Of a stretch of DNA of 20,371 bases, positions 3,040 to 19,063 are shown one piece after another. The stretch's first letter is position 1. Each line of letters starts with the position of its first letter. The notes below the pieces were generated by a model. It saw nothing but the letters and a program-made list of their open reading frames with translations, ran no database searches and was not told where the DNA came from. Source of the stretch: a bacterium (lineage in GTDB: Bacteria; BMS3Abin14); contig CP070698.1 of assembly GCA_020349685.1 (NCBI GenBank), forward strand, positions 1,908,200 through 1,928,570. Direction: 5' to 3'. Made by a program: the position numbers and the translations under genes.

Positions 3040-4560
3040 TTAGGCAGCTTGCGCCTTGCCCGCCTTGACTTTGGCCTTGACGAGCTGGAAAACAGGGAAG
3101 GCGAAGAGGAGTATCGCCACGATCATGAACCACTTTGAGATTGGCCTGTCGAAGAAGACCATGGGGTTCCCGTCGCCCATGATCAGGGACTGCCGGAAGA
3201 ACCTCTCCGTCATGTCGCCCAGCACCAGGGCTACTGCCAGAGGCGCAAGGGGATATTTCAACTTCTTCATCACGTACCCGATCCATCCGAAGATGAGCGT
3301 GCACCAGACGTCGAACATGATGTTGCGCATGACGAAACTGCCGATGAAGCAGGCGATGATGATCGTAGGGGTGAGCATCCCCCACGGCACCCTCATGATG
3401 GCGGCGAGGGCCGGGACGCCCACCATGCAGATGATGAGGCAGACGGTGCCGGACAGGAAGAGGCTTGCTATGAGACCCCACACAAAGACCGGCTGCTCCG
3501 TAAAGAGCCTGGGACCAGGCCACAGGCCCCACATGTAAAGGCCCGCCAGCAGAACGGCGGCCGTGGGTGAACCCGGGATACCCAGGGAGACCATGGGAAG
3601 CAGGGAACCGGTACCGGCGGAGTTGGCCGCAGCCTGGGGGGCGATGACCCCCTCGATGGCCCCATGCCCGTACCTCTCCGGATGTTTGGAGTACTGCTTG
3701 GCAAGACCGTAGCCCAGGAAGGAGGCCGGTGTGGCGCCCGTTCCGGGAAGAACGCCGACGAAAAAGCCCATCAGGGATGCAAGGACCGTCTGGGGGAAGA
3801 AGGCCCAGATGGCCTTGAGGCCTTCCTTCATGTCCTTGATGCCCACCTTGGCGTGGATGACCTCCTTGATCTCCGTGTTGAAGCGATCTTCGCCGTCGAT
3901 CATGATCTCACCGATGCCGAACATCCCGATGGTGATGGGAACGAAGTGGTAGCCGCTCAGCCAGGAGATCTGGCCGAAGGTCAGCCGAGGCTGACCTGTG
4001 ACGAGGTCCAGACCAACTGCGGTTAGAAGGAGTCCGAAGGCGGTGCTCACCAGGGTCTTGGAAGGCTGACCGGTGCCCAGACCAACGAAAGTACTGAAGG
4101 CCAGTAGCATGATGGCGAACATCTCCGGTGGACCGAATTTGAGCGCGAACAGGGCCAGGGGCATGGCCGCGGCCACAAATATGAGCGCCGCTACAACAAT
4201 CCCGACGAAAGAGGCTATGAAGGCGGCAGAAAGCGCCAGCCCCGACTTGCCCTGCTTGGCCATGGGATACCCGTCGAAGATAAGGGCCACGGACCACGGC
4301 TCGCCCGGTATGGCGAAGAGGACCGAGGTGATGACACCGCCATACAGTGCTCCCCAGTAGATGGCCGCAAGGAAGATGATCGCGACCTCCGGCGGAACGA
4401 GGACGGTCAGGGGAAGCAGGAGGGCGACACCGGCCGTACCGCCCAGCCCGGGCAGGACGCCCACGGCCAGGCCCAGCAGCAGCCCCAGGACCATCATCAG
4501 CAGGGACAGGGGCTGAAAAGCGACCCCGAACCCCATCATTAGGTGACCTATTGTTTCCAT
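3040..4560 (-). CDS. tctA: Tripartite tricarboxylate transporter, large permease TctA
   Basis: 506 aa. Duplicated TctA motif GVLPGLGGTAG / GVLPGTGATPAS, plus YGGVITSVLFAIPG, DGYPMAKQG, GLDLVTGQPRLTFG, LGIPGS. RBS GGGAGG. Confidence 0.95.
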   Translation of the reverse strand: METIGHLMMGFGVAFQPLSLLMMVLGLLLGLAVGVLPGLGGTAGVALLLPLTVLVPPEVAIIFLAAIYWGALYGGVITSVLFAIPGEPWSVALIFDGYPMAKQGKSGLALSAAFIASFVGIVVAALIFVAAAMPLALFALKFGPPEMFAIMLLAFSTFVGLGTGQPSKTLVSTAFGLLLTAVGLDLVTGQPRLTFGQISWLSGYHFVPITIGMFGIGEIMIDGEDRFNTEIKEVIHAKVGIKDMKEGLKAIWAFFPQTVLASLMGFFVGVLPGTGATPASFLGYGLAKQYSKHPERYGHGAIEGVIAPQAAANSAGTGSLLPMVSLGIPGSPTAAVLLAGLYMWGLWPGPRLFTEQPVFVWGLIASLFLSGTVCLIICMVGVPALAAIMRVPWGMLTPTIIIACFIGSFVMRNIMFDVWCTLIFGWIGYVMKKLKYPLAPLAVALVLGDMTERFFRQSLIMGDGNPMVFFDRPISKWFMIVAILLFAFPVFQLVKAKVKAGKAQAA

Positions 4561-4601
4561 CTATACCTCCCGATCTTTGATGCCGTTATTAATATGTCAG
4601 G

Positions 4602-4615
4602 TTGTATTACCAATT
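4602..4615 (-). promoter_or_regulatory. Candidate FadR/GntR-type operator upstream of tctA
   Basis: Minus strand AATTGGTAATACAA resembles AATTGGTAGGACAA (13325-13338) and the AATTGGTnnnACCAATT PdhR/LldR-type consensus. It lies in an unusually long (218 bp) tctB-tctA spacer. Confidence 0.35.
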
Positions 4616-4778
4616 TCTCAACGCTTGAAAAGGTAGCCGCGTTATGAAGTGCCTTTTCTTCCAGTGACAGTCCACCTAGCGCTCTTTTCGGCCGGTATCA
4701 CATCTGATAGGCCAGGTACGGTATCTATACCGCTATAGGCTTGGGACAGTGTCTCCGGTTTCCCCCCTTCATAAAACT

Positions 4779-5258
4779 TCAGATGATGAATTTGCCCTGC
4801 ATGTACAGCGGGCTCCTGGGGAGGGGGATCTTCAAACCGACTTCCATACCGAAGTAGACGGTCAACGTGATGATGACGGTAAAGGCGATCACGGCGGTCC
4901 AGCTGTGTTTTCCCAGCCAGCGCACGAAGATGGGAGAGAAGATGAGCATGGCGAAATACACGCCCGCATAGACAACGATTACCGAAAATATCAACGTCAT
5001 GAGCGCGATCCGGCCGGCCTCCATCATGCCCTCTTTGTTGATGAAAAAGTTGTCATCCTCCTTCTTTTCCCTGCGCCAGCCGAGATAAAACAGAAATGCT
5101 GAACAGCCCAGCATCAGCAGCGCCAGGTAAAAGGGCACCATCCCCGCCTGGGGTCCCTGCTGCGGCTCCCAGCCGAACCCCAGCCGGAAGCATTCCCAAA
5201 TGACAATGAGCGATACAACCATAAACAAAGCTGCGACGATCATTTCACCTTTTCTCAA
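4779..5258 (-). CDS. tctB: Tripartite tricarboxylate transporter, small permease TctB
   Basis: 159 aa, about 4-5 TM segments, GP.AG..P motif, C-terminal F..GLKIPLP. TTG start with AGGAGG RBS. Lies between tctC and tctA. Confidence 0.9.
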   Translation of the reverse strand: MRKGEMIVAALFMVVSLIVIWECFRLGFGWEPQQGPQAGMVPFYLALLMLGCSAFLFYLGWRREKKEDDNFFINKEGMMEAGRIALMTLIFSVIVVYAGVYFAMLIFSPIFVRWLGKHSWTAVIAFTVIITLTVYFGMEVGLKIPLPRSPLYMQGKFII

Positions 5259-5280
5259 TTGATCCTCCTAAAAGTAAGGA

Positions 5281-5321
5281 AAAGGGGGTGCAGGGCAACG
5301 TGCAGGACCCTGCACCCCCTT
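5281..5321 (-). terminator. Strong stem-loop after tctC (partial terminator or mRNA-stabilising hairpin)
   Basis: Perfect 14-bp inverted repeat AAGGGGGTGCAGGG (5282-5295) / CCCTGCACCCCCTT (5308-5321), followed on the minus strand by TTCCTTACTTTT. Confidence 0.7.
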
Positions 5322-5352
5322 CGTCAATGAGTCAATTCCCCTTGACTGTTTC

Positions 5353-6327
5353 CTACTTGATCCAGCCCTGGGATTTCATGATATCGATGTGCTTCTTCTC
5401 GTAATCCTCGGCGAACTTCATGAGAGCGTCGCCGGTGAGGAACGTCCTTTTCAGGCCGGTCTTTTCAGCAAAAGCCTTCCAGTCGGCATCCTCGGAGATC
5501 TTCTGGAACAGGCCCACCAGTCCATCCTGGGCCTCCTTGGAGATGCCGGGAGGCGCGAAGATGGCGCGCATCATCTCGTAGCTGAAGTCGAGGCCCACCT
5601 CTTTACCCGTGGGAACGTCCTCGTAACCAGGGATAGCCAGCCTCTCGTCCTGGAAGACGCAAAGCGGGCGCACGAACTCCGGGAAAAATCCGCCGGCCTC
5701 AGAGACCTGGTTCACGGACGCTTCGATGTGCTTGCCCACGAGAGCTTTGGCCACGTCTCCGCCGCCCTTGAAGGGAACATATTTAAAGGGCTTGGTACCA
5801 GCGATCTTCTCGATGGCCCTGAAGACGATCTCGTCTTCCTGCTTCGAGCCGGTGCCGCCCACCTGGATGCTCTTCTCCTTGGCCGCGGCTATGAAGTCCG
5901 CTGCCGTTTTGTAGGGGCTGTCCTTGTAAACCCAGAGCGGGAAGTTGTCGAGAGCAAGCAGTGCGATGGGCGTAAAGTCTCGGAAGGTGAAGGGCAGGTT
6001 CTGGAACAGCGGTGTGGTGATAAAGCTGTTCAGGGTGATGAGCATCTGGTAGCCGTTGCCCTTCTGTCCGAGGACGGCCTGCATGGCCACCGCGCCGGCG
6101 CCGCCCGGCTTGTTGACCGGGATGATAGCCTCGGAAATGTATTTCCCTTTAACGTTGAGACCGATGAGGAAGCGGGCATATTTGTCAGCACCGCCGCCAG
6201 CACCTGCCGAGATCGTGAACTCGACGGGCCTCGTGGGCCAGGCAGCCTCAGCGACCTGTCCAAAGAGGAAAACACATGCGATTGGAACAAGCAAAAGGAT
6301 AAACAAACGCGTTCTTAGCACTTTCAT
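5353..6327 (-). CDS. tctC: Tripartite tricarboxylate transporter, periplasmic substrate-binding protein TctC (Bug family)
   Basis: Signal peptide ending AEA-A, WPTRPVEF, AGGGADKYAR, VNKPGGAG, VPFKGGG, DVPTGKE.G. ATG at 6327 is preferred over GTG 6336 because of spacing from AAGGAGG. Confidence 0.93.
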   Translation of the reverse strand: MKVLRTRLFILLLVPIACVFLFGQVAEAAWPTRPVEFTISAGAGGGADKYARFLIGLNVKGKYISEAIIPVNKPGGAGAVAMQAVLGQKGNGYQMLITLNSFITTPLFQNLPFTFRDFTPIALLALDNFPLWVYKDSPYKTAADFIAAAKEKSIQVGGTGSKQEDEIVFRAIEKIAGTKPFKYVPFKGGGDVAKALVGKHIEASVNQVSEAGGFFPEFVRPLCVFQDERLAIPGYEDVPTGKEVGLDFSYEMMRAIFAPPGISKEAQDGLVGLFQKISEDADWKAFAEKTGLKRTFLTGDALMKFAEDYEKKHIDIMKSQGWIK

Positions 6328-6445
6328 GGTCTTCACACCTCCTTTAAGGAAAAAACCTAGACCATGTTAACCCCCCTAGTCGTCACTAACCATTTATCTC
6401 GTATGCCCTCAACACCTCCTTTCAATTTACTCGTACAATAATATG

Positions 6446-6549: not shown

Positions 6550-7560
<1,011 letters not shown>

Positions 7561-7594: not shown

Positions 7595-8800
7595 CTATTT
7601 GTGGGTGTCCAGAACTTCCTTCTCGAAGTTCATCCAATAGGAATCGTTGGCTTTCCCGGTCTTGACCGCATCGGAAAGAACCTTGGCCATGGCGTAGAAC
7701 TCATTAAGCGTAACGATCTCACCGCCCAGACCTGCCATGAAGGAGGTGACGATGGGTCGCTTGTCCAGCGGATAAAGGGCGGACCTTGTCTCATGGATGA
7801 TGTTGCCGCCACGGGACTGGCCGCCGTAGGAGGTGCTGGTCTCAACAGTCCCTACAGCCTTGACCTTGGAGAGGGATTCCTGGATGGCCTTGGTGGGGAA
7901 GGGCCTCATGAAGCGCAGCCTGGCCACACCGACCTTCACACCCTGCTTGCGCAGATGGTTTACGGCGAAGCGTGCAGTCCTGGCGTGGGCTCCCTGCAGG
8001 AAGAAGGCGATCTCGGCGTCGTCCATCATGTACTCGTCCACGAAGGGGCTGTACTTCCTTCCGAACTGCTTGTTGTAGTCCTTGACCACCTCTTCGATGA
8101 CGGATTCAATCTCGTCAAAGGCCACCGCCCGCTGAACGTTGATAGCCGAGCCCTGGTCCGGGAAGATCTGGGGACCGTGGTTCACGGGCCTGTTGGGATC
8201 CAGGGGATGCGGCGGGTTGTAGGGAGGCAGGAACTCATCGACCGCCTTCTGGTCTTCCAGCTTCATCCTGCCGGGGATGTGGGACACGAAGTAACCGTCC
8301 TGGCAGCAGAACTGGGGCAGCTGGACCCGATGGTCCTCACCGATCCGGTAGTACATGATCGTGTTGTCGTAAACCTCCTGGGGAGACTCGGCCCAACCCA
8401 TGATCCAGCCCTGGTCTCGAGCGCCCATGACATCGGTGTGCTCGGATCCGAAGTCGCCGGGGGGGTCGAGGGCACGGTCGGCGATGGCCATCTGGCAGGG
8501 CAGGCGGCCACCGGCAGCGGGGGAGTAGCACTCCATGGCGTAGGCGACACCGACACCGGAGCTACCAGTGTAGGCCCTGGCGCCGGCGGCGGAGGCTCCG
8601 TAAGCGATGGAAACCTGGGCGTGCTCACCCTCACCGTGGACGAACTCGGCATCGAGTTCACCGTTGGCGACCAGCTTGGAAAGCTCCATCATGATGCCCG
8701 TGTAAGGCCGGATGGGATAGGAGCTGATCACCTCGACTCTCGCATCTTTTGCTCCGTATGCAGCAGCGGCGCAGCCGCTGTAGAATACCTCTTTTGCCAT
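7595..8800 (-). CDS. Oxalate oxidoreductase-type 2-oxoacid:ferredoxin oxidoreductase, alpha subunit
   Basis: True start ATG 8800 (MAKEVFYSGC, RBS AGGAGG), not 8860. YPIRP (Arg31 in place of the PFOR YPITP Thr), GEGEH, and DRALDPPGDF giving Arg109, Asp116, Phe117 at the same numbering I recall for the oxalate oxidoreductase alpha chain. Confidence 0.9.
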   Translation of the reverse strand: MAKEVFYSGCAAAAYGAKDARVEVISSYPIRPYTGIMMELSKLVANGELDAEFVHGEGEHAQVSIAYGASAAGARAYTGSSGVGVAYAMECYSPAAGGRLPCQMAIADRALDPPGDFGSEHTDVMGARDQGWIMGWAESPQEVYDNTIMYYRIGEDHRVQLPQFCCQDGYFVSHIPGRMKLEDQKAVDEFLPPYNPPHPLDPNRPVNHGPQIFPDQGSAINVQRAVAFDEIESVIEEVVKDYNKQFGRKYSPFVDEYMMDDAEIAFFLQGAHARTARFAVNHLRKQGVKVGVARLRFMRPFPTKAIQESLSKVKAVGTVETSTSYGGQSRGGNIIHETRSALYPLDKRPIVTSFMAGLGGEIVTLNEFYAMAKVLSDAVKTGKANDSYWMNFEKEVLDTHK

Positions 8801-8816
8801 CTTATCAAACCTCCTC

Positions 8817-9149
8817 TTAGAAGGGTTTCTCCAGACGAACGACGCCGTCGGGGAACTCAAGCTCGTTTACCGGCTCGAGACAGTTCGCGGGGCACTCGTT
8901 GATACAGATCAGACAGCCCTTGCAGTAGTCCGCGTTCCACACCATCTGCTCGGTTTTCTCATCCAGGTGCCAGCAGGCGTCCGGACAGTAGATGAAACAG
9001 TTCAGGCATGTCGTGCAGGCTTCGTGATCGATAACGGGCCGCTCGGTCCGCCAGTTGCCGGTGATCATGCCGGGCTGCTCCTTAACCGGGGCCGGAAGGA
9101 CGGCTCCCAGAGGGACCTCAAGGTGTTTCGGGATAATAAATCTTGACAT
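8817..9149 (-). CDS. 2-oxoacid (oxalate):ferredoxin oxidoreductase, delta subunit, 2x[4Fe-4S]
   Basis: TGNWRTERPVID, CTTCLNCFIYCPD and YCKGCLICINECP (two CxxCxxCxxxCP motifs); own RBS AAGGAG. Confidence 0.92.
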   Translation of the reverse strand: MSRFIIPKHLEVPLGAVLPAPVKEQPGMITGNWRTERPVIDHEACTTCLNCFIYCPDACWHLDEKTEQMVWNADYCKGCLICINECPANCLEPVNELEFPDGVVRLEKPF

Positions 9150-9165
9150 TTTATTCTCCTTTCAA

Positions 9166-9774
9166 CTACAGGGCTTTAACCTGCGCAGAGTCGAAACCCT
9201 TCTGCACACCGTCCTTGTTGGCAGCGACCTTGACGACGTTCTTGACGTCGAACATGTCGCAGACCTTGGAGGCAGCGCCGACCAGTGGAGCCGAGATACC
9301 GGCGCCAACGCTTGCTACCTCCACACCACCCTCGGACCCCATGAAGTCGATGGCGGCGTCGGCGGCGATGCCGCTGGCGTCCACGCAGACGATGTTGGCC
9401 AGGAGCTCTTTGTTGGGGATGAAGGCGAGGATCTCGTCAGGAGTCCTCCTGGTGTTGACAATGAGGCTTCCACCCTTCGGCATACCGCGGAGGATGTTCA
9501 TGCCCTTCACGATGGTGTCGTCCATGATGACGACGAGGTTGGGGTTGTTGTTCACGTAGACGAAGCGCATCTCGATCTCTTCGTCGCTGAGGCGGACGTA
9601 CTTGCGAAGGGGTACGCCGACGCGGTCCGGAAGGTCAGCGTAGTCGTCCCAGGCCTGGACGAACTTGCCACCGAGGTCGGCAGCGTTCGCCATCAGCAGG
9701 GACGCGTGTCGCCCTTCCATGTCCTGGAACACTCCACGTGCCCAAATTGTGACTTCATACACCTCTTGTGACAT
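9166..9774 (-). CDS. 2-oxoacid (oxalate):ferredoxin oxidoreductase, gamma subunit
   Basis: VTIWARGV (replaces the usual GRGGQG, as recalled for oxalate oxidoreductase), VQAWDDYADLPDR, P.LVVIMDDT, LIVNT, VDASGIA, GSEG loop; RBS AAGGAGG. Confidence 0.9.
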   Translation of the reverse strand: MSQEVYEVTIWARGVFQDMEGRHASLLMANAADLGGKFVQAWDDYADLPDRVGVPLRKYVRLSDEEIEMRFVYVNNNPNLVVIMDDTIVKGMNILRGMPKGGSLIVNTRRTPDEILAFIPNKELLANIVCVDASGIAADAAIDFMGSEGGVEVASVGAGISAPLVGAASKVCDMFDVKNVVKVAANKDGVQKGFDSAQVKAL

Positions 9775-9821
9775 AACGTTTTTCCTCCTTTGTTCTTGTG
9801 AAGAAACCTGGTAATGCGTCC

Positions 9822-10568
9822 TTAGGAGACCTTGTTCTGACTACCCCCCTTTCTTGTCTTATTCTGTTTTTTGTATCCTTTTACGCCCTGGAAAAGGCTC
9901 CTCTCGATATCCTCCAGGTGCTCGTGCATGACCCTGGCGGCGAGGTCCTTATCCCCGGTCTTGATGGCTTGAAGGATCTCCCTGTGGCGGACCAGGGACA
10001 TGCCCGGCCTGCCTTCGACCTGCAGGTATTTGTCGCGGCTCTCGGACAGAAGATCCATGATGTTATCGACGATACTGAGGATGACCTTGTTCCCGGCAGC
10101 CTGGGCGAGGATGTAATGAAAAGTCTTGTCAACCTCCATACCGCTCTCGCCCTTGGCCATGGCTCTCTCCTGTTCTTCGACGGCCTTTTCGAGCATATCC
10201 AGCTCTTCGGGCGTGGCCCGTTCGGCCGCCAGATAGGCCAGCTGCGGCTCTATGATCCGGCGCATCTCGAAAAGCTGCATCTGACCGTCCTTTTCCGTGA
10301 AGATGACATTGGCCAGCGGATTGACAAGGGTTTCAACGGGCTGGCGCGCGATGTACGTACCGTCGCCCTGCCGGCTTTCCAGATACCCCTGGGTCTCGAG
10401 GGAACGAAGGGCCTCACGGACCGAAGACCGGCTTACGTTGAAAACTTCTGCCAGCTCCCGCTCGGAAGGAAGCTGGTCTCCGGAATGCAGTCGGCCTTTT
10501 TCGATCATCTTTTTGACCTTGACCACGATCTCTTCATAGACCCTGGTCTTCTTGACAGGTTTGAACAC
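9822..10568 (-). CDS. GntR-family transcriptional regulator, FadR subfamily (PdhR/LldR/GlcC-like)
   Basis: wHTH GDQLPSERELAEVFNVSRSSVREAL...SRQGDGTY; FCD domain with E.R..IE, D..FH, H..I..AI, HL. GTG start. Confidence 0.95.
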   Translation of the reverse strand: MFKPVKKTRVYEEIVVKVKKMIEKGRLHSGDQLPSERELAEVFNVSRSSVREALRSLETQGYLESRQGDGTYIARQPVETLVNPLANVIFTEKDGQMQLFEMRRIIEPQLAYLAAERATPEELDMLEKAVEEQERAMAKGESGMEVDKTFHYILAQAAGNKVILSIVDNIMDLLSESRDKYLQVEGRPGMSLVRHREILQAIKTGDKDLAARVMHEHLEDIERSLFQGVKGYKKQNKTRKGGSQNKVS

Positions 10569-10605
10569 CCTGGTTCCCTTCTAACTCCCCCCGGGATTCC
10601 GGAAA

Positions 10606-12960
10606 TCAGTGCCGCACATTGGGGGGGACGTCGTTTAAAACGATATTTTTCTCGGCTGCCTCCTCAAAGTGAGCCGGTAAGATCACGCACCTGCTAAGAT
10701 CAGCATCCTTTTTGCCCGTCATGCATTCGTCCAGGGCCAGCATGACCGCTTTTTTGCACAGCGCTTCGATATCCGCTCCCGACCAGCCGTCGCTCATATC
10801 GGCCAGGTGTTGAATGTCGACCTTGCTGTCTAAGGGCATGTCTTTGAGGTAGATATCCAGGATCTCGATCCTCTCGTCCTTGGTGGGAAGAGGGAATTTG
10901 ATGATGTAGTCGAACCTTCCGGCACGCAGGAGCGCCGGCTCCATGAGGTCGATGCGGTTCGTGGCCGCCACGACCAGGACACCCAGAGACCCGTGAAGTT
11001 CGTCGAGTTCCCTAAACAGCTGGCTCACGATGCGTTGGGAGACTTCGCCCGCATCCTCAGCCGTCCGGGCCGGGGCGATGGCCTCGATCTCGTCGATGAG
11101 AAGGATGCAGGGAGAAGCCTGCTTGGCGCGCTTGAACACCTCCTTGAGCCCCTTCTCCGTCTCCCCCACCCACTTGGAGAGCAGCGTCGGCGGGTCGACG
11201 ACGATGAGGGTCATGCCGGTCTGGCCGGACAGGGCTCTGGCCAGCAGTGTCTTGCCGGTTCCGGAAGGACCGGAAAGAAGAACCCCCTTGGGAGGGCTGA
11301 GCCGCGTGTTGGCAAAAATGGGCAGGTCGCGGTTCGGGAACTGGGCGATGGAAAGCAGGTTCTTCTTGATCTCCTCGAGACCGCCCACATCGTCGAAGGT
11401 GAACTGCGCCCTCTCAATGAGAAACTCCCTGGTGGAGGTGGGCTGGACGGATTTGTAGGCCTCGAGGAAGTCTTCACCGGTGACCTTGATCACGGTGTCC
11501 TTGTCAAGGGTGGGCTTGTCGTCCAGCTGGAACCTGATGTCGGGCATGATCCTGCGGAGGGCGGCCATGCCGGCTTCCTTGCACAGCGCCGCTATGTCCG
11601 CTCCGACGTACCCATTTGTTATCGCGGCCAGTTCATCGAGGTCGACATCCTCCGCCAGCGGCATGGTCCTGGAGTGGATCTTGAGGATCTGCTTTCGCCC
11701 ATCCCTGGAGGGCGACCCGATGCTGATCTCACGATCAAAACGACCCGGTCGCCTGAGGGCCGGATCGACAAGTTCAGGCATGTTGGTGGCGCCGATAATA
11801 ACGACCTCGCCCCTCGACACAACGCCGTCCATGAGGGCAAGGAGCTGGGCCACGACACGCTTTTCCACATCCCCGATGACCTGCGCCCTCTTGGGAGCGA
11901 GGGCATCGATCTCGTCGAGGAAAATGATGGCAGGCGCGTTCTTGCGGGCCTCCTCGAATACCTGCCTGAGCTTGGCCTCGCTCTCACCGTAAAACTTGTG
12001 TATGACCTCAGGGCCGTTGACATGGATAAAATGCGCCCGGACCTCGTTGGAGATGGTGCGCGCCAGGAGAGTTTTGCCAGTTCCAGGAGGTCCGGACAGG
12101 AGAACCCCTTTGGGAGGGTCTATCCCCAGCTCTGCGAAGAGTTCCGGGAATTTCAGAGGCAGTTCTATCATCTCCCTCACGTGGCTCAGTTCGACATCCA
12201 GTCCACCTATGTCTTCATAGGAGGTGCGGGAGGATTTTTCGTGGGTGAAATCGGAAGTTCTAAAGGAGAGAGTTGTGTTGGCGTTGACCCGGACACAGCC
12301 GCGTGGACTCATCCCCTCAACAATGAAAAACTGCGGCCTGGTTCCGAAAAAGACGACCTGGACCCTGTCACCGACGACGACATGGAGCCCCGAGAGCAGA
12401 TGCCTGATGTGCGGGATCTCCTCGTCCTTGGGTATGGGCGCTCCGGCCTCGACAGGCGCCAGCAGAATGGTATCGGCACCCTTGAATGGTATCTTGGTCA
12501 CAGTGACCCATTCGTCAATGGAAACCTGGGCGTTATCACGGGTGATGCCGTCGATCTGGATGAGTTCCTGACCCGTATAGTTGGCGGTAAGCTGGGCGGC
12601 CCTTGCGACCGTGGAGCGGCGCCCTGTGATCTGAAGGACTTCGCCCGGCATGGCGCCGAGCTGCTGGAGGAGGGCGGTATCGATCCTGGCGAGGCCCTTC
12701 CCTTCATCGTCGATGAAGGCTTTCGTGACGCGAAGGGAGAATTCCTTTCCGGCCCCCCTCTTCGGTCCAATCTCTTCAGGCCTCTTCTCTTCCCTTATGG
12801 TCTGCTCCACATCGTCCTTGGGAATGAAGACCGCCTTGGAGCCGGATGCCTTCTTGGGCCCTGCTTTTTCTTTTTTGTCATCCAGTTTTTTTGATTTTCC
12901 GTCCAAGGTCGCTCCGCTTTCGTGGATGCCGGAGGAATCCACCCTTCCGTATTTCGCCAT
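10606..12960 (-). CDS. CDC48/VCP(p97)/VAT-subfamily AAA+ ATPase (N domain plus two AAA domains)
   Basis: N domain LRVTKA..D.GKGLARID. D1: YEDIGGL, GPPGTGKT, pore loop KFYG, DEIDA, ALRRPGRFDRE. D2: FDDVGGL, GPSGTGKT, KWVG, DEIEA, LLRAGRFD. Confidence 0.95.
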   Translation of the reverse strand: MAKYGRVDSSGIHESGATLDGKSKKLDDKKEKAGPKKASGSKAVFIPKDDVEQTIREEKRPEEIGPKRGAGKEFSLRVTKAFIDDEGKGLARIDTALLQQLGAMPGEVLQITGRRSTVARAAQLTANYTGQELIQIDGITRDNAQVSIDEWVTVTKIPFKGADTILLAPVEAGAPIPKDEEIPHIRHLLSGLHVVVGDRVQVVFFGTRPQFFIVEGMSPRGCVRVNANTTLSFRTSDFTHEKSSRTSYEDIGGLDVELSHVREMIELPLKFPELFAELGIDPPKGVLLSGPPGTGKTLLARTISNEVRAHFIHVNGPEVIHKFYGESEAKLRQVFEEARKNAPAIIFLDEIDALAPKRAQVIGDVEKRVVAQLLALMDGVVSRGEVVIIGATNMPELVDPALRRPGRFDREISIGSPSRDGRKQILKIHSRTMPLAEDVDLDELAAITNGYVGADIAALCKEAGMAALRRIMPDIRFQLDDKPTLDKDTVIKVTGEDFLEAYKSVQPTSTREFLIERAQFTFDDVGGLEEIKKNLLSIAQFPNRDLPIFANTRLSPPKGVLLSGPSGTGKTLLARALSGQTGMTLIVVDPPTLLSKWVGETEKGLKEVFKRAKQASPCILLIDEIEAIAPARTAEDAGEVSQRIVSQLFRELDELHGSLGVLVVAATNRIDLMEPALLRAGRFDYIIKFPLPTKDERIEILDIYLKDMPLDSKVDIQHLADMSDGWSGADIEALCKKAVMLALDECMTGKKDADLSRCVILPAHFEEAAEKNIVLNDVPPNVRH

Positions 12961-13002
12961 TGATCAATTCCCGTTTTGACCGCAACAGGATATGTGGTTT
13001 AA

Positions 13003-13060
13003 TCGTCTGACCAAAACGTTCTTACTGGTCAGACCAAATCAAGGTATGGTGGTCGGACCA
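13003..13060. promoter_or_regulatory. Three tandem FadR/LldR-type operators (TGGTCnGACCA)
   Basis: TCGTCTGACCA 13003-13013, TGGTCAGACCA 13026-13036, TGGTCGGACCA 13050-13060; start-to-start spacing 23 and 24 bp. They lie between the promoter and the cdc48 start. Confidence 0.85.
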
Positions 13061-13062
13061 CT

Positions 13063-13092
13063 AAACTACTGTAAGCACGACCTCTTTGTCAA
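13063..13092 (-). promoter_or_regulatory. Sigma70-type promoter of the cdc48-gntR-oxidoreductase operon
   Basis: Minus strand TTGACA (13092-13087), 18-nt spacer, TAGTTT (13068-13063). The predicted +1 falls within the 13050-13060 operator. Confidence 0.65.
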
Positions 13093-13166
13093 CGGAAAAT
13101 ATGGAAACGTGGACCCCCCCTCGTTTCTCTTGTGGTTTGCTTTAGGAAACCCTAAAAGCCGTAAAA

Positions 13167-13177
13167 TGGTAGGACCT
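13167..13177. promoter_or_regulatory. Distal degenerate FadR-type operator
   Basis: AAA-TGGTAGGACCT-T, matching TGGTnnnACCA at all but the last position. Confidence 0.5.
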
Positions 13178-13324
13178 TAAGGATTACGTTTTAAAGTTTA
13201 CCTCTTGAAATTCTCCTGCGCAAGCTCGACGCGAAAAACCCCCTAAATAAACGTGAATTGCCGCGCACCGCCTCCTGAAATGCGAAAATACTCCTACTTT
13301 CAGGTATGTCACACCGGGGTTTAA

Positions 13325-13341
13325 AATTGGTAGGACAAATT
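13325..13341. promoter_or_regulatory. Distal degenerate FadR-type operator
   Basis: AATTGGTAGGACAAATT, one mismatch from AATTGGTnnnACCAATT. Confidence 0.55.
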
Positions 13342-13362
13342 AGAAACTGTGAGCTGTGAAAT

Positions 13363-13391
13363 AAAAAAAGCCTGACCAGCTTTTGTCAGGC
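13363..13391 (-). terminator. Rho-independent terminator after glcF
   Basis: Minus strand GCCTGAC-AAAAGCTG-GTCAGGC followed by T7, about 50 bp downstream of the glcF stop. Confidence 0.85.
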
Positions 13392-13438
13392 AAAACCGTT
13401 TGCACCAATGTACCGCTAACCAAGGCGCCTTTGCCTCC

Positions 13439-14779
13439 CTAACCCCTCACCCCCATCCTCCCATACCGCGGTTCTCCCCCCTCCCCTTCCTCCTCAAGGG
13501 AATACCTTTCGAGCAGTTCCGCCATGTGCAGGACCTTAATATCGCCCCTGCCGTTCCTGATAAGCCCGTCGCGGATGTGCATGATGCAGGCCGGACAGGA
13601 GGTCACCACAGCATCGGCTCCTGACTCGAGAATACGGGCGATCTTCTGGTCGTTGACTTCCTTGGAGATATCATAGTGCTCCAGGCTGAAAGAACCGCCC
13701 ATTCCGCAGCAGCGCTCGTTGTCTCCCATAGGCACATATCTGACTCGCGGCAGGGATCTGATCAGCGCTATGGGTTCATCTTTGACACCCTGGAGCCTCC
13801 CGAGGTGGCAGGGGTGGTGATAGGTCACGGTCAGGATTGGAAGATCCCCGTCTTCCCGCTTCTCCGGTTCCCTGACCGCATCCACCTTTCTTATACGGTG
13901 GAGGAACTCGTTTATATCGAGGATTTTAGACAGGAAACTTTCGGTGCGCTTTTCCTCGATGCCGGCCTCGAGCAGAAGCTCCCTGTAATTTTCCTTGAGG
14001 TTCCCCCCGCAGGAGGCGCATCCTGTAACGACGGCATCGAGACCATACTTTTCAAAGGCTTCCAGGTTTTTGCAGGCGAGTTCCCTTGCAGTCTCGCTGG
14101 CACCACCAACGAGAGCCGGCATGCCGCAGCAGACCTGCTCGGAGGGAACAAAAACGGAGACTCCCTCCCTGGTGAGCAGCCCTATCATCTTCTCCCCGGT
14201 TCCTGGGTACAGGTAGTTGGTCATACACCCGGCGAAGATCCCCACGCGCGGCCCTTTTCCCGTCGCCACCTGTCCCGAAAAACGGTCGGTAAAGAAGGTT
14301 TTGGCCAGTCCCGGCAGGGTCCTGTCCGGGGTGATGAGCGGAAGAGGGACCCTTCTCCTGATGCCGCTGTCGGCAGGCACCCTCTTGAAAAGAAGATTCT
14401 GGAATGTCCTGCCGGTCCTCAAAGCGAGATCCAGAAGCCTGGAATCGCCCACAACCTGTTCGAGGATCAGTCTTTTGGCCGGTCTGATACCGACGTTCCC
14501 AGCCATTCGCTTTCTTGCGTCGAGCATGGTGGAAAGGGTCTGCACCTCGCTGGGGCAGGCCTCTTCGCAGGCCCCGCACAGCAGGCACTTCTCCAGATAC
14601 TCGCGGTAGGCGTCGGACTCGTCAAGATACCCCTGTTCGACCGCTTCTGCCAGGGCCAGCTTTCCCCTGGCAGCAGAGGCTTCTTCGGGAAGCACTGAAA
14701 AGACGGGGCATACGGTCTGGCAGGTACCGCACTTTACGCAGGCCGAGCGTCCGAATCGCTTCTGCCGGTCCTCACTCAT
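13439..14779 (-). CDS. glcF: GlcF-like Fe-S subunit of glycolate/D-lactate (2-hydroxyacid) dehydrogenase
   Basis: CVKCGTCQTVCP, ARGK, CLLCGACEEACP, and two CCG domains (FAGC...CCG...CASC; YHHPCH...CCG...CPAC). Overlaps the glcD stop by 8 bp. Confidence 0.9.
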   Translation of the reverse strand: MSEDRQKRFGRSACVKCGTCQTVCPVFSVLPEEASAARGKLALAEAVEQGYLDESDAYREYLEKCLLCGACEEACPSEVQTLSTMLDARKRMAGNVGIRPAKRLILEQVVGDSRLLDLALRTGRTFQNLLFKRVPADSGIRRRVPLPLITPDRTLPGLAKTFFTDRFSGQVATGKGPRVGIFAGCMTNYLYPGTGEKMIGLLTREGVSVFVPSEQVCCGMPALVGGASETARELACKNLEAFEKYGLDAVVTGCASCGGNLKENYRELLLEAGIEEKRTESFLSKILDINEFLHRIRKVDAVREPEKREDGDLPILTVTYHHPCHLGRLQGVKDEPIALIRSLPRVRYVPMGDNERCCGMGGSFSLEHYDISKEVNDQKIARILESGADAVVTSCPACIMHIRDGLIRNGRGDIKVLHMAELLERYSLEEEGEGGEPRYGRMGVRG

Positions 14780-16190
14780 GGCGGTGAACCAGTTCCCTTT
14801 CCAGGCTGGATGCTGCGTAATCGAAGGTCTTGTGCGGGTTCAGGATATTATTTGGATCGAGAGCCTGCTTGATCTTCCGCATCACCTCTATGGCGGAATT
14901 TTCCAGCTCTATGCCGAGGTAGGGTGCCTTGGCTATTCCGATCCCGTGTTCCCCCGACAGGGATCCTCCAAGGGATACGACCAGTTCAAAAAGCTCCCGT
15001 ACTGCCTCCTGCGCTCGAGAAACCTCGTCCTTGTCATCGGGGTCAAGGAGGAGGTTGACATGGACGTTCCCGTCACCGGCGTGACCGAAGTTGACGATCG
15101 TGAGCCTGTGCCTAGTTGCGAGCTTCTCGATTCCCGTGATGAGATCAGGGATCTTCATACGGGGGACGGACACATCCTCATTAATTTTGAGGGGCTTGAT
15201 CTTCATGATGGCCGGCGAAAGGGAGCGCCTGGCCGTCCACAGTGATGCCCGCTCATCCGCCTCCCTGGCGGACTTTACCTGGAGGGCTCCCTCCTTGTAA
15301 CAGGCCTCTTCGATCGTTCCGGCATCCTCCTCGACGACCGAGGGGCTGCCATCCACCTCCATCAGCAGAAGAGCGGCCGCCCCGGCAGGGATGTCTTCCT
15401 CCAGGTATGCCTTGACGCATTCCACCGCGTTCCGGTCCATGAACTCCAGGGTGGACGGCGTGACGCGACCAGACATGATCCTGGCGACCGCCCTGGCCGC
15501 GGACTGGATCTCGCTAAAAGAGGCCAGCATCGTACCCACCGATTCCGGAACGGGCACCAGTTTCAGTAAAAGGCGCGTGATCACGCCGAGCGTTCCCTCG
15601 GACCCGACGATGAGCCTGGTCAGGTCATATCCGGTCACGCTTTTAATGGAAGCCGAACCCGTGTGGACGATCTCCCCCGTGGGCATGACGACCTCCAGGG
15701 CCATGACGTAATCCCGGGTCACTCCGTACTTGACGGCCCTGGTTCCTCCCGCGTTCTCCGCCGCGTTGCCCCCGAGGGTGGAGAATTCCATGCTCGCCGG
15801 GTCGGGTGGAAAGAAAAGGCTGTATTTGGCCGCCGCTTTCTGAAGCTCGCCGTTGAGCACACCAGGCTCGACCCAGGCAGTCAGACTGTCGGGATCGATC
15901 TCAAGGATCCGGTTCATCCTCCTGGTCGTAAGGACCAGACCCCCGTCAATGGCGAGGGAACCTCCTGTGAGCCCCGTGCCTGCCCCTCGGGGAACGACGG
16001 GAAAAGATCTTTCGTTGGCCAGCTTCAGCAGCCGGGAAACCTCAAGGGCGGTCTGGGGATGGGCTACCATATCGGGCAGATAACGCCTGTTCATGGCATC
16101 GTAGGAATAGAGGATGAGATCCTCCCTGCTGTCGGAACAGTGCTCCCTGCCTACGATCTCACGGATCTTTTGTCGGATGCTCTTTTCCAA
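14772..16190 (-). CDS. glcD: GlcD-like FAD-linked 2-hydroxyacid (glycolate/D-lactate) dehydrogenase
   Basis: VPRGAGTGLTGG, FPPDPAS, STLGGN.A.NAGG, KYGVTRDYV, GYDLT..GSEGTLG, GHAGDGNVH, GEHGIG, LDP.NILNP. TTG start. Confidence 0.92.
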   Translation of the reverse strand: MEKSIRQKIREIVGREHCSDSREDLILYSYDAMNRRYLPDMVAHPQTALEVSRLLKLANERSFPVVPRGAGTGLTGGSLAIDGGLVLTTRRMNRILEIDPDSLTAWVEPGVLNGELQKAAAKYSLFFPPDPASMEFSTLGGNAAENAGGTRAVKYGVTRDYVMALEVVMPTGEIVHTGSASIKSVTGYDLTRLIVGSEGTLGVITRLLLKLVPVPESVGTMLASFSEIQSAARAVARIMSGRVTPSTLEFMDRNAVECVKAYLEEDIPAGAAALLLMEVDGSPSVVEEDAGTIEEACYKEGALQVKSAREADERASLWTARRSLSPAIMKIKPLKINEDVSVPRMKIPDLITGIEKLATRHRLTIVNFGHAGDGNVHVNLLLDPDDKDEVSRAQEAVRELFELVVSLGGSLSGEHGIGIAKAPYLGIELENSAIEVMRKIKQALDPNNILNPHKTFDYAASSLERELVHRHE

Positions 16191-16221
16191 TTGTGTCTTT
16201 CCGCTTTAGGGTAGCGGGCAC

Positions 16222-18801
16222 CTATCGCGTTGACTCGATATCGCCCTTCAGGTGCCTCAGGTGCCCCTCATATAGGTATTCAAGGGTCTGGGCCGCCACC
16301 TCCTCCGGAGAAACCTTGATCCGGGCCACACCGTCTTCCACCGCCGCTTTGGCCACCGCTGCCGCTACGACTGGAGGAACCTTGAAATCCATGGCATGGG
16401 GGATGATGTATCCCGGTTCGAGTTTGTTGTCCGGTATGAAATGGGCGATGGCCTCTGCGGCAGCAACCTTCATTTGTTTGGTGATATCGGTGGCCCGGAC
16501 GTCCAGAGCCCCCCTGAAAACTCCTGGGAAAACAAGACAGTTGTTGACCTGATTGGGAAAATCGGATCTCCCTGTGACGACCACTTTCGCGCCGGCGGCG
16601 TAAGCTTCGTCAGGCCAGATCTCCGGCACGGGATTCGCCATGGCGAACACGACGGGATCCTTCGCCATGCTGCGCACCATGTCCTGGGTGACGGTGTTGC
16701 CGACAGAAAGGCCGATGAGGACATCGGCCCCCTTTATGATCGCGGCCAGATCGCTTTTCACGTTATCGAGGTTCGTCATCTGGGCGATCTCCTCCATGAT
16801 CCTGTTCATCTTCTCTTTTCTGCCTGAATAGACAGTCCCGAATTCGTCGCAGAGGGTAATGTTTTTCGCACCCGCGACCATCAGGAGCCGGGCGACCGCA
16901 ATAGCGGCAGCACCCGCGCCGTTCATGACGATCTTGATGTCAGTCAGCTGCTTGTTTACGATCTTGAGAGAGTTTATGAGACCTGCAAGAACAGCGATGG
17001 CGGTACCGTGCTGATCGTCGTGAAAGATGGGGATGTCCGTCTCTTTTTTCAGCCGTTCCTCGATCTCGAAGCAGCGCGGGGCGGAGATGTCTTCCAGGTT
17101 GACCCCTCCGAAGGTGGGTGAGATCGCCTTTACCAGTTCCACGATCTCGTCCATGTTCTGGGTGCACACACATATGGGAAAAGCCTCCACACCGGCGAAG
17201 GTCTTGAAGAGGATGGCCTTCCCTTCCATGACCGGGATGGCCGCCCTGGGGCCGATATTGCCGAGACCCAGTACAGCGCTTCCGTCGGAAACGATGGCAA
17301 CCAGGTTGGCCTTGCAGGTCAGGTCATAGACCTTGTCGGGCTCCTTGGACAGGAGCAGGCTGGCCTGAGCCGCCTCGGGCGGAAGATAGAGCCGGTTAAG
17401 GATGTATTCATCCCGGATGGGAACCTTGACTTTCACCTCCAGGACCCCCTGATAACGGTGGTGAAGATCTATGGATTCTTCATTGATATCCATCTTCTTC
17501 TTCCTGGGCGGCACCGGGGGCAGGATCGTGTATTCGTTCTCGTAAACGATCTTCAGCGTCTTGGCCTCCACCTCCAAAGGCGAGACCTCCACCCTGGCGT
17601 CACCCCTGTCGATGGCCGTCTCCGCCACCACCCTGGCCACTTTGGAAGCGACGTGGAACTCGAAGATGGGAGGAACCAGGTAGCCGGCGCTGAGTTTATT
17701 TTCCGGCACCAGGCTGGCAATGGTCTCTGCCGCAGCCAGGTAGGTCGCCTCGGTGATTCTCCAGGCCCGCACGTCGAGAAGGCCCCGGAACAGCCCGGGA
17801 GCCACGTAGGCCGAATTGATCTCGTTGGGAAAATCGGAACGACCCGATCCCACGACCGCCGCGCCCGCCTTGATGGCCTCGTCAGGCATGATCTCCGGGA
17901 TGGGGTTTGCGAGGGCAAAGACGATGGCGTCCTTGGCCATGCTCTTGACCATGTCCCTGGACACGATACCGGGTGCCGACAGACCGATGTAGACATCCGC
18001 CCCTGCCATCACGTCCTTCAGACTGCCCGTCCTCCTGTCAATATTGGTTTGAAGGGAGATCTCCGATTTGGCCCAGTTCGTCGGTTGCGTCCTGTATCTG
18101 TAGATGGAACCGTACCTGTCGCAGAGGATGATCTCCTTGGCCCCGGCCCACAGGAGAAGTCTTGCCGTCGCTATCCCCGCTGCCCCGGCGCCCGAGATGA
18201 CAATGTTGACCTTGCTCAACTTCTTCCCAACGACCTTAAGGGCGTTGATGAGGGCCGCGTAGACGGCAATGGCCCCGCCGTGCTGATCGTTGTGGAAGAC
18301 TGGTATCCTTGTGGCTTTCTTGAGGTTCCGCTCCAGGGTGAAACATTTGGGTGCGGCGATGTCTTCCAGAACTATCCCGCCGAAGGTAGTGGCCAGCCTC
18401 AGGCAAATCTCGACGATCTCATCGCAATCCTGGGTCTTGAGGGCGATGGGCAGGGCATCCACGCCGGCAAAGGTCTTGAAAAATACAGAGCGTCCTTCCA
18501 GCATGGCCAGGGCCGATTCGGGCCCGGTCTGGCCAAATCCATAGACTGAAGAACCATCGCTGATCACGGCGATGGTGTTGCCGCGGCAGGTAAGATCAAA
18601 GGACTTGATGGGGTCCGCGGCGATCTCCATACACGGCGCGGCCACACCCGGTGTGTAAAGAAGGCTGAGGGCGTAGGAGTCCTTGATGGGGATCTTGCTG
18701 CCAACACCGATCAGGCCCTGATTCTTCAGCCTCAGATCCAGTCCATACTGCCTGGTTTGTGATTGATCAGACTTGCCGGGTTTTTTCTTCTTGCTTGTCA
18801 T
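16222..18801 (-). CDS. NAD(P)-dependent malic enzyme made of two tandem malic-enzyme domains
   Basis: Two full repeats of the small bacterial ME: SDGS, FKTFAGV, LEDI.AP.CF, FH(N/D)DQHG, GAGAA, FA(L/M)ANP.PEI, GRSDFPN, PG.FRG.LDVRA. No PTA domain. Start most likely ATG 18801 or 18804 (RBS GGGGAG), not 18858. Confidence 0.92.
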   Translation of the reverse strand: MTSKKKKPGKSDQSQTRQYGLDLRLKNQGLIGVGSKIPIKDSYALSLLYTPGVAAPCMEIAADPIKSFDLTCRGNTIAVISDGSSVYGFGQTGPESALAMLEGRSVFFKTFAGVDALPIALKTQDCDEIVEICLRLATTFGGIVLEDIAAPKCFTLERNLKKATRIPVFHNDQHGGAIAVYAALINALKVVGKKLSKVNIVISGAGAAGIATARLLLWAGAKEIILCDRYGSIYRYRTQPTNWAKSEISLQTNIDRRTGSLKDVMAGADVYIGLSAPGIVSRDMVKSMAKDAIVFALANPIPEIMPDEAIKAGAAVVGSGRSDFPNEINSAYVAPGLFRGLLDVRAWRITEATYLAAAETIASLVPENKLSAGYLVPPIFEFHVASKVARVVAETAIDRGDARVEVSPLEVEAKTLKIVYENEYTILPPVPPRKKKMDINEESIDLHHRYQGVLEVKVKVPIRDEYILNRLYLPPEAAQASLLLSKEPDKVYDLTCKANLVAIVSDGSAVLGLGNIGPRAAIPVMEGKAILFKTFAGVEAFPICVCTQNMDEIVELVKAISPTFGGVNLEDISAPRCFEIEERLKKETDIPIFHDDQHGTAIAVLAGLINSLKIVNKQLTDIKIVMNGAGAAAIAVARLLMVAGAKNITLCDEFGTVYSGRKEKMNRIMEEIAQMTNLDNVKSDLAAIIKGADVLIGLSVGNTVTQDMVRSMAKDPVVFAMANPVPEIWPDEAYAAGAKVVVTGRSDFPNQVNNCLVFPGVFRGALDVRATDITKQMKVAAAEAIAHFIPDNKLEPGYIIPHAMDFKVPPVVAAAVAKAAVEDGVARIKVSPEEVAAQTLEYLYEGHLRHLKGDIESTR

Positions 18802-18894
18802 CATCACTCCCCCGGAAAAGTATAGAAGGGGTGGCGCCCCTCCTAAAAATGGCGCCATTAGACCTTCTATCGAGCGCCCTTAACTCCAGTTTGA

Positions 18895-18923
18895 AAACTA
18901 ACACCAAGATATATATTTGGCAA
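18895..18923 (-). promoter_or_regulatory. Sigma70-type promoter for malic enzyme-glcD-glcF
   Basis: Minus strand TTGCCA (18923-18918), 17-nt spacer, TAGTTT (18900-18895), with TG of an extended -10. Confidence 0.55.
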
Positions 18924-18927
18924 CCGG

Positions 18928-18968
18928 ACCCGGAACGGGAGGTCGATTGAACGAGCCGCGTTCCGGGT
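18928..18968. repeat. Inverted repeat / stem-loop downstream of larA
   Basis: ACCCGGAACG (18928-18937) / CGTTCCGGGT (18959-18968), a perfect 10-bp stem with no U-tract. Confidence 0.6.
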
Positions 18969-19063
18969 GAATAAGGAAGGTGGAATAGGGAATAAGGAAT
19001 GAAGATAAATTGCCCCGAAAAAGTGCGGGCCCCTCACCTTCCCTATTCAATATTCCCCGTTCC
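18968..19063. repeat. Two convergent arrays of degenerate heptamer repeats (GGAATAR-like)
   Basis: Plus strand TGAATAA GGAAGGT GGAATAG GGAATAA GGAATGA (18968-19002); minus strand GGAACGG GGAATAT TGAATAG GGAAGGT (19063-19036). Confidence 0.6.

Follow-up and report, generated by a model that had tools for sequence, protein, structure and literature searches.

A bacterial Cdc48-type ATPase clade encoded with oxalate oxidoreductase: a candidate dedicated helper of one metabolic enzyme

Among Cdc48-type ATPases of solved structure, the closest reference is the archaeal type exemplified by VAT of Thermoplasma acidophilum (PDB 5g4f and 5g4g), in which an N domain precedes two ATPase modules, D1 and D2, each ring having an aromatic pore loop and an intact nucleotide site. 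The N domain is the usual client or adaptor site of Cdc48. Homologues are widespread in bacteria, where they have almost no assigned jobs. One of them is the subject of this analysis: a Cdc48/VAT-type AAA+ ATPase of 784 residues encoded at positions 10606–12960 of a bacterial DNA stretch of 20,371 nucleotides (assembly GCA_020349685.1, contig CP070698.1, positions 1,908,200 to 1,928,570; hereafter the window). It appears to be the first gene of a unit that also encodes oxalate oxidoreductase (OOR), an enzyme whose cofactors are thiamine pyrophosphate (TPP) and three [4Fe-4S] clusters. The window protein shares all of the archaeal features listed above. It differs in being bacterial, in lacking a tail of the HbYX type (hydrophobic residue, tyrosine, any residue), in falling on a separate, strongly supported branch marked by five clade-diagnostic substitutions, and in being encoded in a predicted operon for one metabolic enzyme. 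The clade to which it belongs offers a specific and testable candidate client.

Rings of the AAA+ class that activate or mature one metabolic enzyme encoded next to them are familiar from the Rubisco activases (Rca and CbbX) and the MoxR-type maturation ATPases (CbbQ, NorQ, and CoxD). The resemblance would be one of functional analogy, not of membership, since those proteins are single-ring members of other AAA+ clades, whereas the protein here is a double-ring Cdc48 bearing an N domain. On the enzyme side, the closest reference is the OOR of Moorella thermoacetica (PDB 5c4i, 5exd, and 5exe), which the window enzyme matches in its alpha subunit. A locus whose alpha subunit is 96% identical to the Moorella protein likewise carries Cdc48 directly upstream. 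The window differs from the Moorella reference in having gamma and delta as two genes instead of the single fused 316-residue subunit of Moorella, in its uptake genes (TctCBA), and in the position of the regulator, which stands between the ATPase and OOR and not ahead of the ATPase. A bacterial point of comparison is Cpa, an actinobacterial Cdc48-like protein described as a proteasome interactor in organisms with a 20S proteasome (PMC6017811). Cpa and the window protein alike represent the Cdc48 lineage in bacteria and lack an established cellular role; in contrast, the genome of the window has one match to the proteasome family PF00227, and the gene context suggests OOR as the partner. No publication linking a Cdc48-type ATPase to OOR was found, in a search that did not cover the OOR-defining paper (Pierce et al., 2010) or supplementary files.

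Pfam and motif positions bear out the intact N-D1-D2 architecture that the initial annotation had read from the sequence, including both Walker A/B sets, the arginine fingers, and the pore loops. Every window gene and site located in this text lies on the minus strand, apart from the palindromic operators, to which no strand is assigned. The N domain (12256–12735, residues 76–235) comprises CDC48_N at residues 76–157 (65.8 bits, cut-off 35.1) and CDC48_2 at residues 175–235 (23.7 bits, cut-off 22.4). Two stretches match PF00004 AAA, with 282 bits in total, and two match AAA_lid_3. The D1 module and lid (11533–12105, residues 286–476) contain Walker A GPPGTGKT at 290–297, the pore loop KFYG at 322–325, and Walker B DEID at 349–352; their D2 counterparts (10738–11283, residues 560–741) are GPSGTGKT at 564–571, KWVG at 596–599, and DEIE at 623–626. 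The arginine-finger stretches RRPGRFDRE (403–411) and LRAGRFD (678–684) are invariant in a 28-row alignment, as are the Walker A lysine of both rings, D349/E350, and D623. The CDC48 model TIGR01243 aligns over 676 residues at 784.9 bits (E 7e-236), narrowly below its cut-off of 802.65, while the next-best NCBIfam models, PAN and FtsH, match single rings only. VAT is the best solved relative (5g4f, 615 bits). With this anatomy, the protein is a candidate hexameric, substrate-threading unfoldase. The best NCBIfam match is the generic CDC48 subfamily, and NCBIfam has no model for the OOR-linked clade itself.

The presumptive partner is of the OOR type, with a predicted activity of reducing ferredoxin in an oxalate-dependent, CoA-independent manner. 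Its alpha gene (7595–8860) scores 578.4 bits against NF045791, above the cut-off of 500, and matches 5c4i_A at 505.7 bits over 388 residues, with the identical stretches YPIRPYTGIM and IADR.LDPPGDFG. The true start of alpha is likely the methionine at residue 21 of the longest open reading frame, near nucleotide 8800, because homologues align from there. Beta, the TPP-binding subunit (6550–7530), reaches 572.5 bits against the NF045792 cut-off of 590. The 202-residue gamma subunit (domain III; 9166–9774) covers positions 13–206 of the 316 in NF045790 at 207.6 bits, and the separately encoded delta subunit (8817–9149, 110 residues), a ferredoxin-like protein for two [4Fe-4S] clusters with eight invariant cysteines in two CxxCxxCxxxC motifs, covers positions 227–315 at 99.2 bits. 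Each falls below the model's cut-off of 230 because the subunit is split here into two genes, which jointly span positions 13–315. The split occurs in most lineages; a fused gamma–delta of 315–316 residues is found in the Moorella-type loci L205, L208, L216, and L217.

The association of this ATPase with OOR can be approached from either gene. Taking Cdc48 as the anchor, 13 of 15 other Deferrimicrobiaceae genomes contain an orthologue (67–87% identical), and 12 of the 15 have an OOR alpha above cut-off. The order Cdc48-GntR-OOR is found in all 12 whole-genome loci, 10 of which extend to OOR beta before the contig ends, and in all seven loci of the family from a genome scan; as four of these seven are the same contigs as among the 12, this amounts to all 15 distinct loci other than the window. 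In the window itself, Cdc48 and OOR gamma are about 0.8 kb apart on the same strand, the interval being the GntR gene. One relative that is 97% complete (G007) has neither Cdc48 nor OOR. Three others (G008, G011, and G013) yielded only one gene of the pair; there, either the contig stops next to the gene that is present or that gene sits on short contigs. The genome scan took one genome per species and returned 542 Cdc48 relatives in 599 candidate stretches, the best 80 of which came from more than 10 bacterial phyla. The statement in the initial annotation that Cdc48 is patchy in bacteria was therefore fair in kind and understated the spread. Those best 80 loci were analysed with the window proteins as queries against their flanks, some of which are short; they divide into the seven Deferrimicrobiaceae loci, three from proteobacterial metagenome-assembled genomes (64–67% identical Cdc48), and 70 others from many phyla (46–52% identical). 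No OOR gene occurs in the fetched flanks of these 70, and in seven genomes with a Cdc48 from outside the clade no OOR alpha exceeds its cut-off anywhere, the best score being 422.8 bits. In contrast, all three proteobacterial genomes possess OOR genes. In L034, OOR beta (80% identical) lies 5.7 kb from Cdc48 on the same contig and convergent to it. In the genomes of L035 and L036, OOR alpha (588.6 and 571.6 bits, over cut-off) is on other short contigs; Cdc48 there follows genes for formate dehydrogenase and formate–tetrahydrofolate ligase (L035) or, on the same strand, genes for a second oxidoreductase and NfnAB-like proteins (L036).

Anchoring on OOR alpha instead gives a congruent picture. 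A broad profile sample of 401 genomes yielded alpha over cut-off in three genomes outside Deferrimicrobiaceae (G262, G174, and G055). In the first, from another, small phylum with three genomes sampled, a 59% identical Cdc48 lies upstream of OOR, and after a set of housekeeping genes a single strand carries Cdc48, an RraA-like gene, OOR gamma, delta, alpha, and beta, a Na/Ca-exchanger-like gene, GntR, and an epimerase gene. A metagenome scan with the OOR alpha of G055 as query returned 80 loci. Cdc48 (48–68% identical to that of the window) is present in 51 of them, and in 40 of the 47 whose sequence upstream of OOR extends 2.5 kb or more; the 29 loci without it are mostly short. In the phylum of a metagenome-assembled genome titled Bacillota, 30 of 401 sampled genomes have OOR alpha (500–844 bits). 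A 44–53% identical Cdc48 stands directly upstream of gamma on the same strand in 28 of these 30, usually preceded by GntR; in the remaining two, the contig ends within the locus. One of these loci, L204, has the order GntR-Cdc48-OOR and an alpha subunit about 96% identical to 5c4i_A (by a hand count of the alignment, about 15 differences in 395 positions from the crystallised Moorella enzyme). The statement in the initial annotation that an AAA ATPase gene lies near the Moorella OOR genes is thereby borne out. Since Cdc48 is directly upstream of an OOR so close to the crystallised one, the relationship can be tested where the enzyme is already understood.

At least six arrangements of the genes occur: Cdc48-GntR-OOR, GntR-Cdc48-OOR, Cdc48-OOR, OOR-GntR-Cdc48, Cdc48 convergent after beta, and Cdc48 about 5.6 kb downstream on the same strand. 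The neighbourhood has thus survived rearrangement. When 11 lineage groups are compared, the only recurring genes are Cdc48, the OOR subunits, GntR (10 of 11), and an epimerase-family gene (7 of 11). Consistent with a distinct lineage, a 142-row tree places all 72 OOR-linked Cdc48 rows, the window among them, on one branch with an approximate likelihood-ratio support (SH-aLRT) of 100; the 70 bacterial and archaeal rows without the linkage fall outside it. The tree came from a quick IQ-TREE search under LG+G4, with the two archaeal rows as root; at 90% identity, 25 representatives stood in for the 47 full-length metagenome proteins, and the partial row L102 and four incomplete metagenome matches were left out. 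The window protein has all five residues that diagnose the clade, of which G464 lies in the D1 lid, T510 and F513 belong to the D1–D2 linker, and L605 and L655 to D2. Each is found in at least 96% of the 72 clade rows and at most 6% of the 70 others. An interim list of 14 such sites, drawn from 44 rows, was reduced to these five with 72 rows. The initial annotation had staked its proposal on the closest homologues being linked to OOR genes, and every clade member examined adjoins OOR or has OOR in its genome. As the pairing is met again in widely separated bacteria, the ATPase probably serves OOR as a dedicated, so far undescribed helper.

Several observations weigh against such a dedicated role. 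The linked group in the tree is defined by the very trait under test, and for L035 and L036, which belong to it, the linkage holds only at the genome level. Many of the counted loci are close kin and not independent. Some OORs lack the ATPase: the 96% complete genome G174 has GntR-OOR-TctCBA with an alpha of 542 bits and no Cdc48 anywhere at E ≤ 1e-70, the threshold that also finds none in G055 (86% complete, with OOR on a 2.7-kb contig), and the metagenome loci L127, L128, and L190 as well as the G174 locus (L108) show no AAA match at E ≤ 1e-3 in 2–9 kb of flank on each side. Because such loci exist, the ATPase is dispensable for at least some OORs. Nor does any clade-diagnostic residue fall in the N domain when the 72 clade rows are set against the 70 others. 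The last two observations would also fit a general stress unfoldase with many clients that is merely co-regulated with oxalate catabolism, for instance against proteotoxic effects of oxalate or metal chelation. We nonetheless consider that explanation distinctly unlikely, as the clade is beside OOR or in OOR-bearing genomes in 72 of 72 rows while non-clade bacterial Cdc48 is OOR-linked in none of 70 loci, and one would not expect a general chaperone to stay with a single enzyme across six gene orders and four or more phyla.

Co-inheritance has a similar ambiguity. Over 28 loci, the pairwise distances of Cdc48 follow those of OOR alpha with r = 0.87, a value reached in 0 of 2000 permutations and as tight as the alpha–beta correlation (0.80). 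This speaks for the pairing in showing inheritance as a unit, not contact, and it tells against a dedicated role insofar as it could reflect shared descent or transfer of a single cassette. The extreme form of that argument, in which the genes are inherited or transferred as a block with no functional link at all, fits both the tight correlation and the close kinship of many loci. It is, in our estimation, the least probable of the explanations considered here. Linkage persists despite repeated changes of order, strand, and spacing, and in Deferrimicrobiaceae conserved operators would subject Cdc48 and OOR to the same control. In addition, a dispensable passenger of about 2.2 kb should be lost often, while none of the 28 Bacillota-type loci that can be judged lacks Cdc48.

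The organization of the window suggests how the two products might be coordinated. The minus-strand row runs from a LarA-like gene through genes for an 878-residue malic-enzyme protein and GlcD-like and GlcF-like proteins to a 478-bp gap, then Cdc48, the GntR/FCD gene, and the four OOR genes, and continues with TctC, TctB, TctA, the epimerase-family gene, a CitMHS transporter, and the start of ThiC. After the GlcF-like gene, a hairpin with a T-run (13370–13391; a seven-pair stem with five GC pairs and the tail TTTTTTTATT) resembles a terminator by consensus match and would end the preceding transcription unit. Downstream of it, three predicted palindromic operators of the FadR/GntR type TGGTCnGACCA, namely TCGTCTGACCA, TGGTCAGACCA, and TGGTCGGACCA, are spaced 23–24 bp apart at 13003–13060, 43–100 bp upstream of the Cdc48 ATG. 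Just upstream of the first operator, a TTGACA hexamer at 13087–13092, read directly from the sequence, is a candidate −35 box, and a promoter scan called no full promoter there. The three operators are the sole matches in the window to TGGTCNGACCA with zero or one mismatch. With up to two mismatches, 12 matches are found and 11.6 expected by chance, so the argument for the operators rests on their clustering and conservation. At least one site of this type precedes Cdc48 in 15 of 15 other Deferrimicrobiaceae loci and in none of four loci outside the family. The coordinates agree with the initial annotation in placing Cdc48 behind the operator array and 37 bp ahead of the regulator. Its view of Cdc48 as the first gene of an operon likewise fits the terminator-like site, the array, and the intergenic gaps of 37, 47, and 16 bp (Cdc48/GntR, GntR/gamma, and gamma/delta), and a terminator scan found no terminator-like site between these four genes. 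The proposed unit begins with Cdc48, continues with GntR, OOR gamma, delta, alpha, and beta, and ends with TctCBA, and it is predicted to be co-transcribed.

The regulator (9822–10568) carries a winged-helix GntR domain (79 bits) and an FCD ligand domain (113.9 bits). Its nearest NCBIfam models, NanR, LldR, and PdhR, all score below cut-off, but the two domains together with palindromic operators of the TNGTNNNACNA type are features of the FadR subfamily. As the operator motif is of the classical FadR/GntR type, this protein is the obvious candidate repressor and likely binds the array. It would repress the unit through three operators lying over the promoter and release them when substrate is present, and under such shared control the ATPase would be made whenever OOR is made. 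The adjacency of GntR and Cdc48 in most arrangements, and the recurrence of GntR in 10 of 11 lineage groups, could also be taken to mean that the ATPase removes or turns over the repressor itself, thereby sharpening induction of the operon. This seems very improbable. In the fetched DNA, a GntR query finds no GntR-like gene beside Cdc48 either in the convergent and downstream arrangements of the proteobacterial type or in the plain Cdc48-OOR form (L129, L131, and L133); the one match in L158 is weak (26% identical) and 9.6 kb distant. The neighbour that stays more constant is OOR, not GntR, and a double-ring machine of about 720 residues would be a costly means of controlling one repressor.

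Whether the candidate unfoldase hands its clients to a protease bears on what it would do to OOR. The window protein ends in PPNVRH, with no penultimate tyrosine and no HbYX tail, as the initial annotation had noted; by comparison, the two archaeal Cdc48 copies in L096 end in -AYS and -GYT. A whole-genome search for PF00227 gave a single match, so no alpha/beta pair of a 20S proteasome was found. With this match count and its -NVRH end, the protein does not conform to the proteasome-docking type of archaeal Cdc48. No protease or adaptor gene recurs near clade Cdc48 genes in the 11 lineage groups compared. These three results, the missing tail, the solitary PF00227 match, and the absence of a travelling protease gene, count against a disposal role in which damaged OOR subunits, such as oxidised Fe-S subunits, would be pulled out and unfolded by the ATPase for a housekeeping protease, as quality control of a fragile and abundant enzyme. 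Disposal would, however, predict linkage to OOR equally well, and full threading is suggested by the aromatic pore loop that each ring carries; cooperation with proteasomes is also reported for archaeal Cdc48 and for actinobacterial Cpa (PMC3493965; PMC6017811). Taken together, we regard disposal as unlikely.

We lean instead, with restrained confidence, towards the clade being a dedicated, non-degradative helper of OOR, a remodeller that would contact the enzyme directly. A dedicated remodeller is favoured because the protein has VAT-like threading anatomy, no docking tail, a genome with one PF00227 match, no protease that travels with it, and a promoter that it is predicted to share with OOR. 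In such a scheme, the ATPase would engage an OOR subunit, pull on it at the expense of ATP, and release it. Pulling might help an enzyme with this many cofactors to assemble, or might return inactive or damaged enzyme to a state that can be loaded, instead of delivering it to a protease. The sequences themselves establish the domain anatomy, the operator array, and a phylogenetically broad linkage to OOR that outlasts rearrangement; from these we infer co-transcription, repression by GntR, binding of the ATPase to OOR, and a remodelling and not a degradative role, and the present data do not separate activation of OOR from its assembly or disposal. A narrower and more tentative possibility is a true activase, which would make this the first Cdc48-family protein with a single metabolic client, required for making or restoring active OOR by pulling on one subunit for TPP or Fe-S loading or for release of a dead-end TPP adduct. 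In that case, co-expression of Cdc48 would be necessary to obtain active recombinant OOR, which is of interest for the chemistry of CO2 and oxalate. More generally, if the ATPase serves assembly or reactivation, the concept of an activase, so far applied to Rubisco and a few metalloenzymes, would extend to two further groups, the Cdc48 family and the 2-oxoacid:ferredoxin oxidoreductase superfamily, and would matter for OOR production for oxalate removal or CO2 chemistry.

Both termini of the window protein have features of more local distribution. The first 71 residues (12748–12960) form a lysine-rich extension that is specific to the genus; the N domain proper begins near residue 72, and Cdc48 proteins from other Deferrimicrobiaceae genera have 717–726 residues. 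In an alignment of 16 proteins, the extension is whole in 11 rows, three rows begin inside it, and it is absent from two rows of other genera. It consists of a conserved tip, GRVDS.GIH, a variable Lys/Glu-rich linker, and the conserved islands AVF..K..L and IREEKRPEE. Because the tip and islands are conserved, the extension is taken as coding and the ATG at 12960 as the real start; it could serve as a regulatory or docking tail. At the opposite end (10606–10623), the pattern V/M/T-[RKM]-H occurs in 12 of 15 Deferrimicrobiaceae rows (loci L014–L033), and G262 ends in -KKH. A C-terminal V-[RK]-H docking motif was considered and rejected, since the clade's proteobacterial, metagenome, and Bacillota-type proteins do not have it. 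The tails of OOR were likewise set aside as possible handles: the proline-rich beta tail and the -VVRLEKPF end of delta are alike in Cdc48-linked and unlinked OORs. Two other identities did not hold. IteA matches one ring only (245 bits, cut-off 510), and a ubiquitin-like (Bil/Bub-type) or defence context is contradicted by the lack of such domains among the window genes.

Downstream of OOR, the TctC, TctB, and TctA genes of a tripartite carboxylate transporter (3040–6336, Pfam) occupy the same position in Deferrimicrobiaceae loci and probably provide substrate uptake. The conserved cluster trails off with the NAD-dependent epimerase/dehydratase-family gene (1862–2803) and the CitMHS transporter (438–1781). 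The best NCBIfam score of the epimerase-family protein is 85.7 bits against a cut-off of 475, and its presence in the OOR clusters of the seven lineage groups extends across phyla; the protein may account for a step in the metabolism of oxalate or glyoxylate that has gone unrecognised. Upstream of Cdc48, the LarA-malic-GlcD-GlcF row fills 13439–20344, with ThiC at the far end of the cluster. In several other genera (L019, L022, L023, and L024) it is ThiC that lies upstream of Cdc48, and in the genus of the window (the window itself and G001 in L014) the GlcD/GlcF-like genes take its place. The 878-residue protein of this row (16222–18858) contains two complete malic-enzyme modules, with PF00390 and PF03949 twice each, in an apparent tandem fusion.

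Variation of a different kind is seen at related loci. The second, distant 2-oxoacid oxidoreductase (26–36% identical) occurs together with NfnA-like and NfnB/GltD-like genes in L034 (3171–8082), L036 (1–3771), and L119 (7088–7396), and in the proteobacterial loci these genes stand between OOR and Cdc48. The vicinity of L036 also has a Crp-like regulator and a TPP enzyme of the oxalyl-CoA-decarboxylase fold family. In L175, L188, L199, and about 25 similar metagenome loci, whose Cdc48 is 48–52% identical to that of the window, about 1.8 kb of extra DNA separates a short gamma match from delta. In the genome of the window (G000), a single contig of 2.03 Mb, the FtsH model matches only the two rings of the Cdc48 described here, and genomes of the same genus with 2.9–3.2 Mb have an FtsH-level match; given its completeness of 81.9%, the contig is probably not a whole chromosome. 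Finally, near-identical copies of window positions 8800–13450 (75–96% of the words sampled) occur in 20 sequencing runs of eight studies on sediment, estuary, or marine sediment; one of the runs may come from the source sample, and all are of the DNA type.

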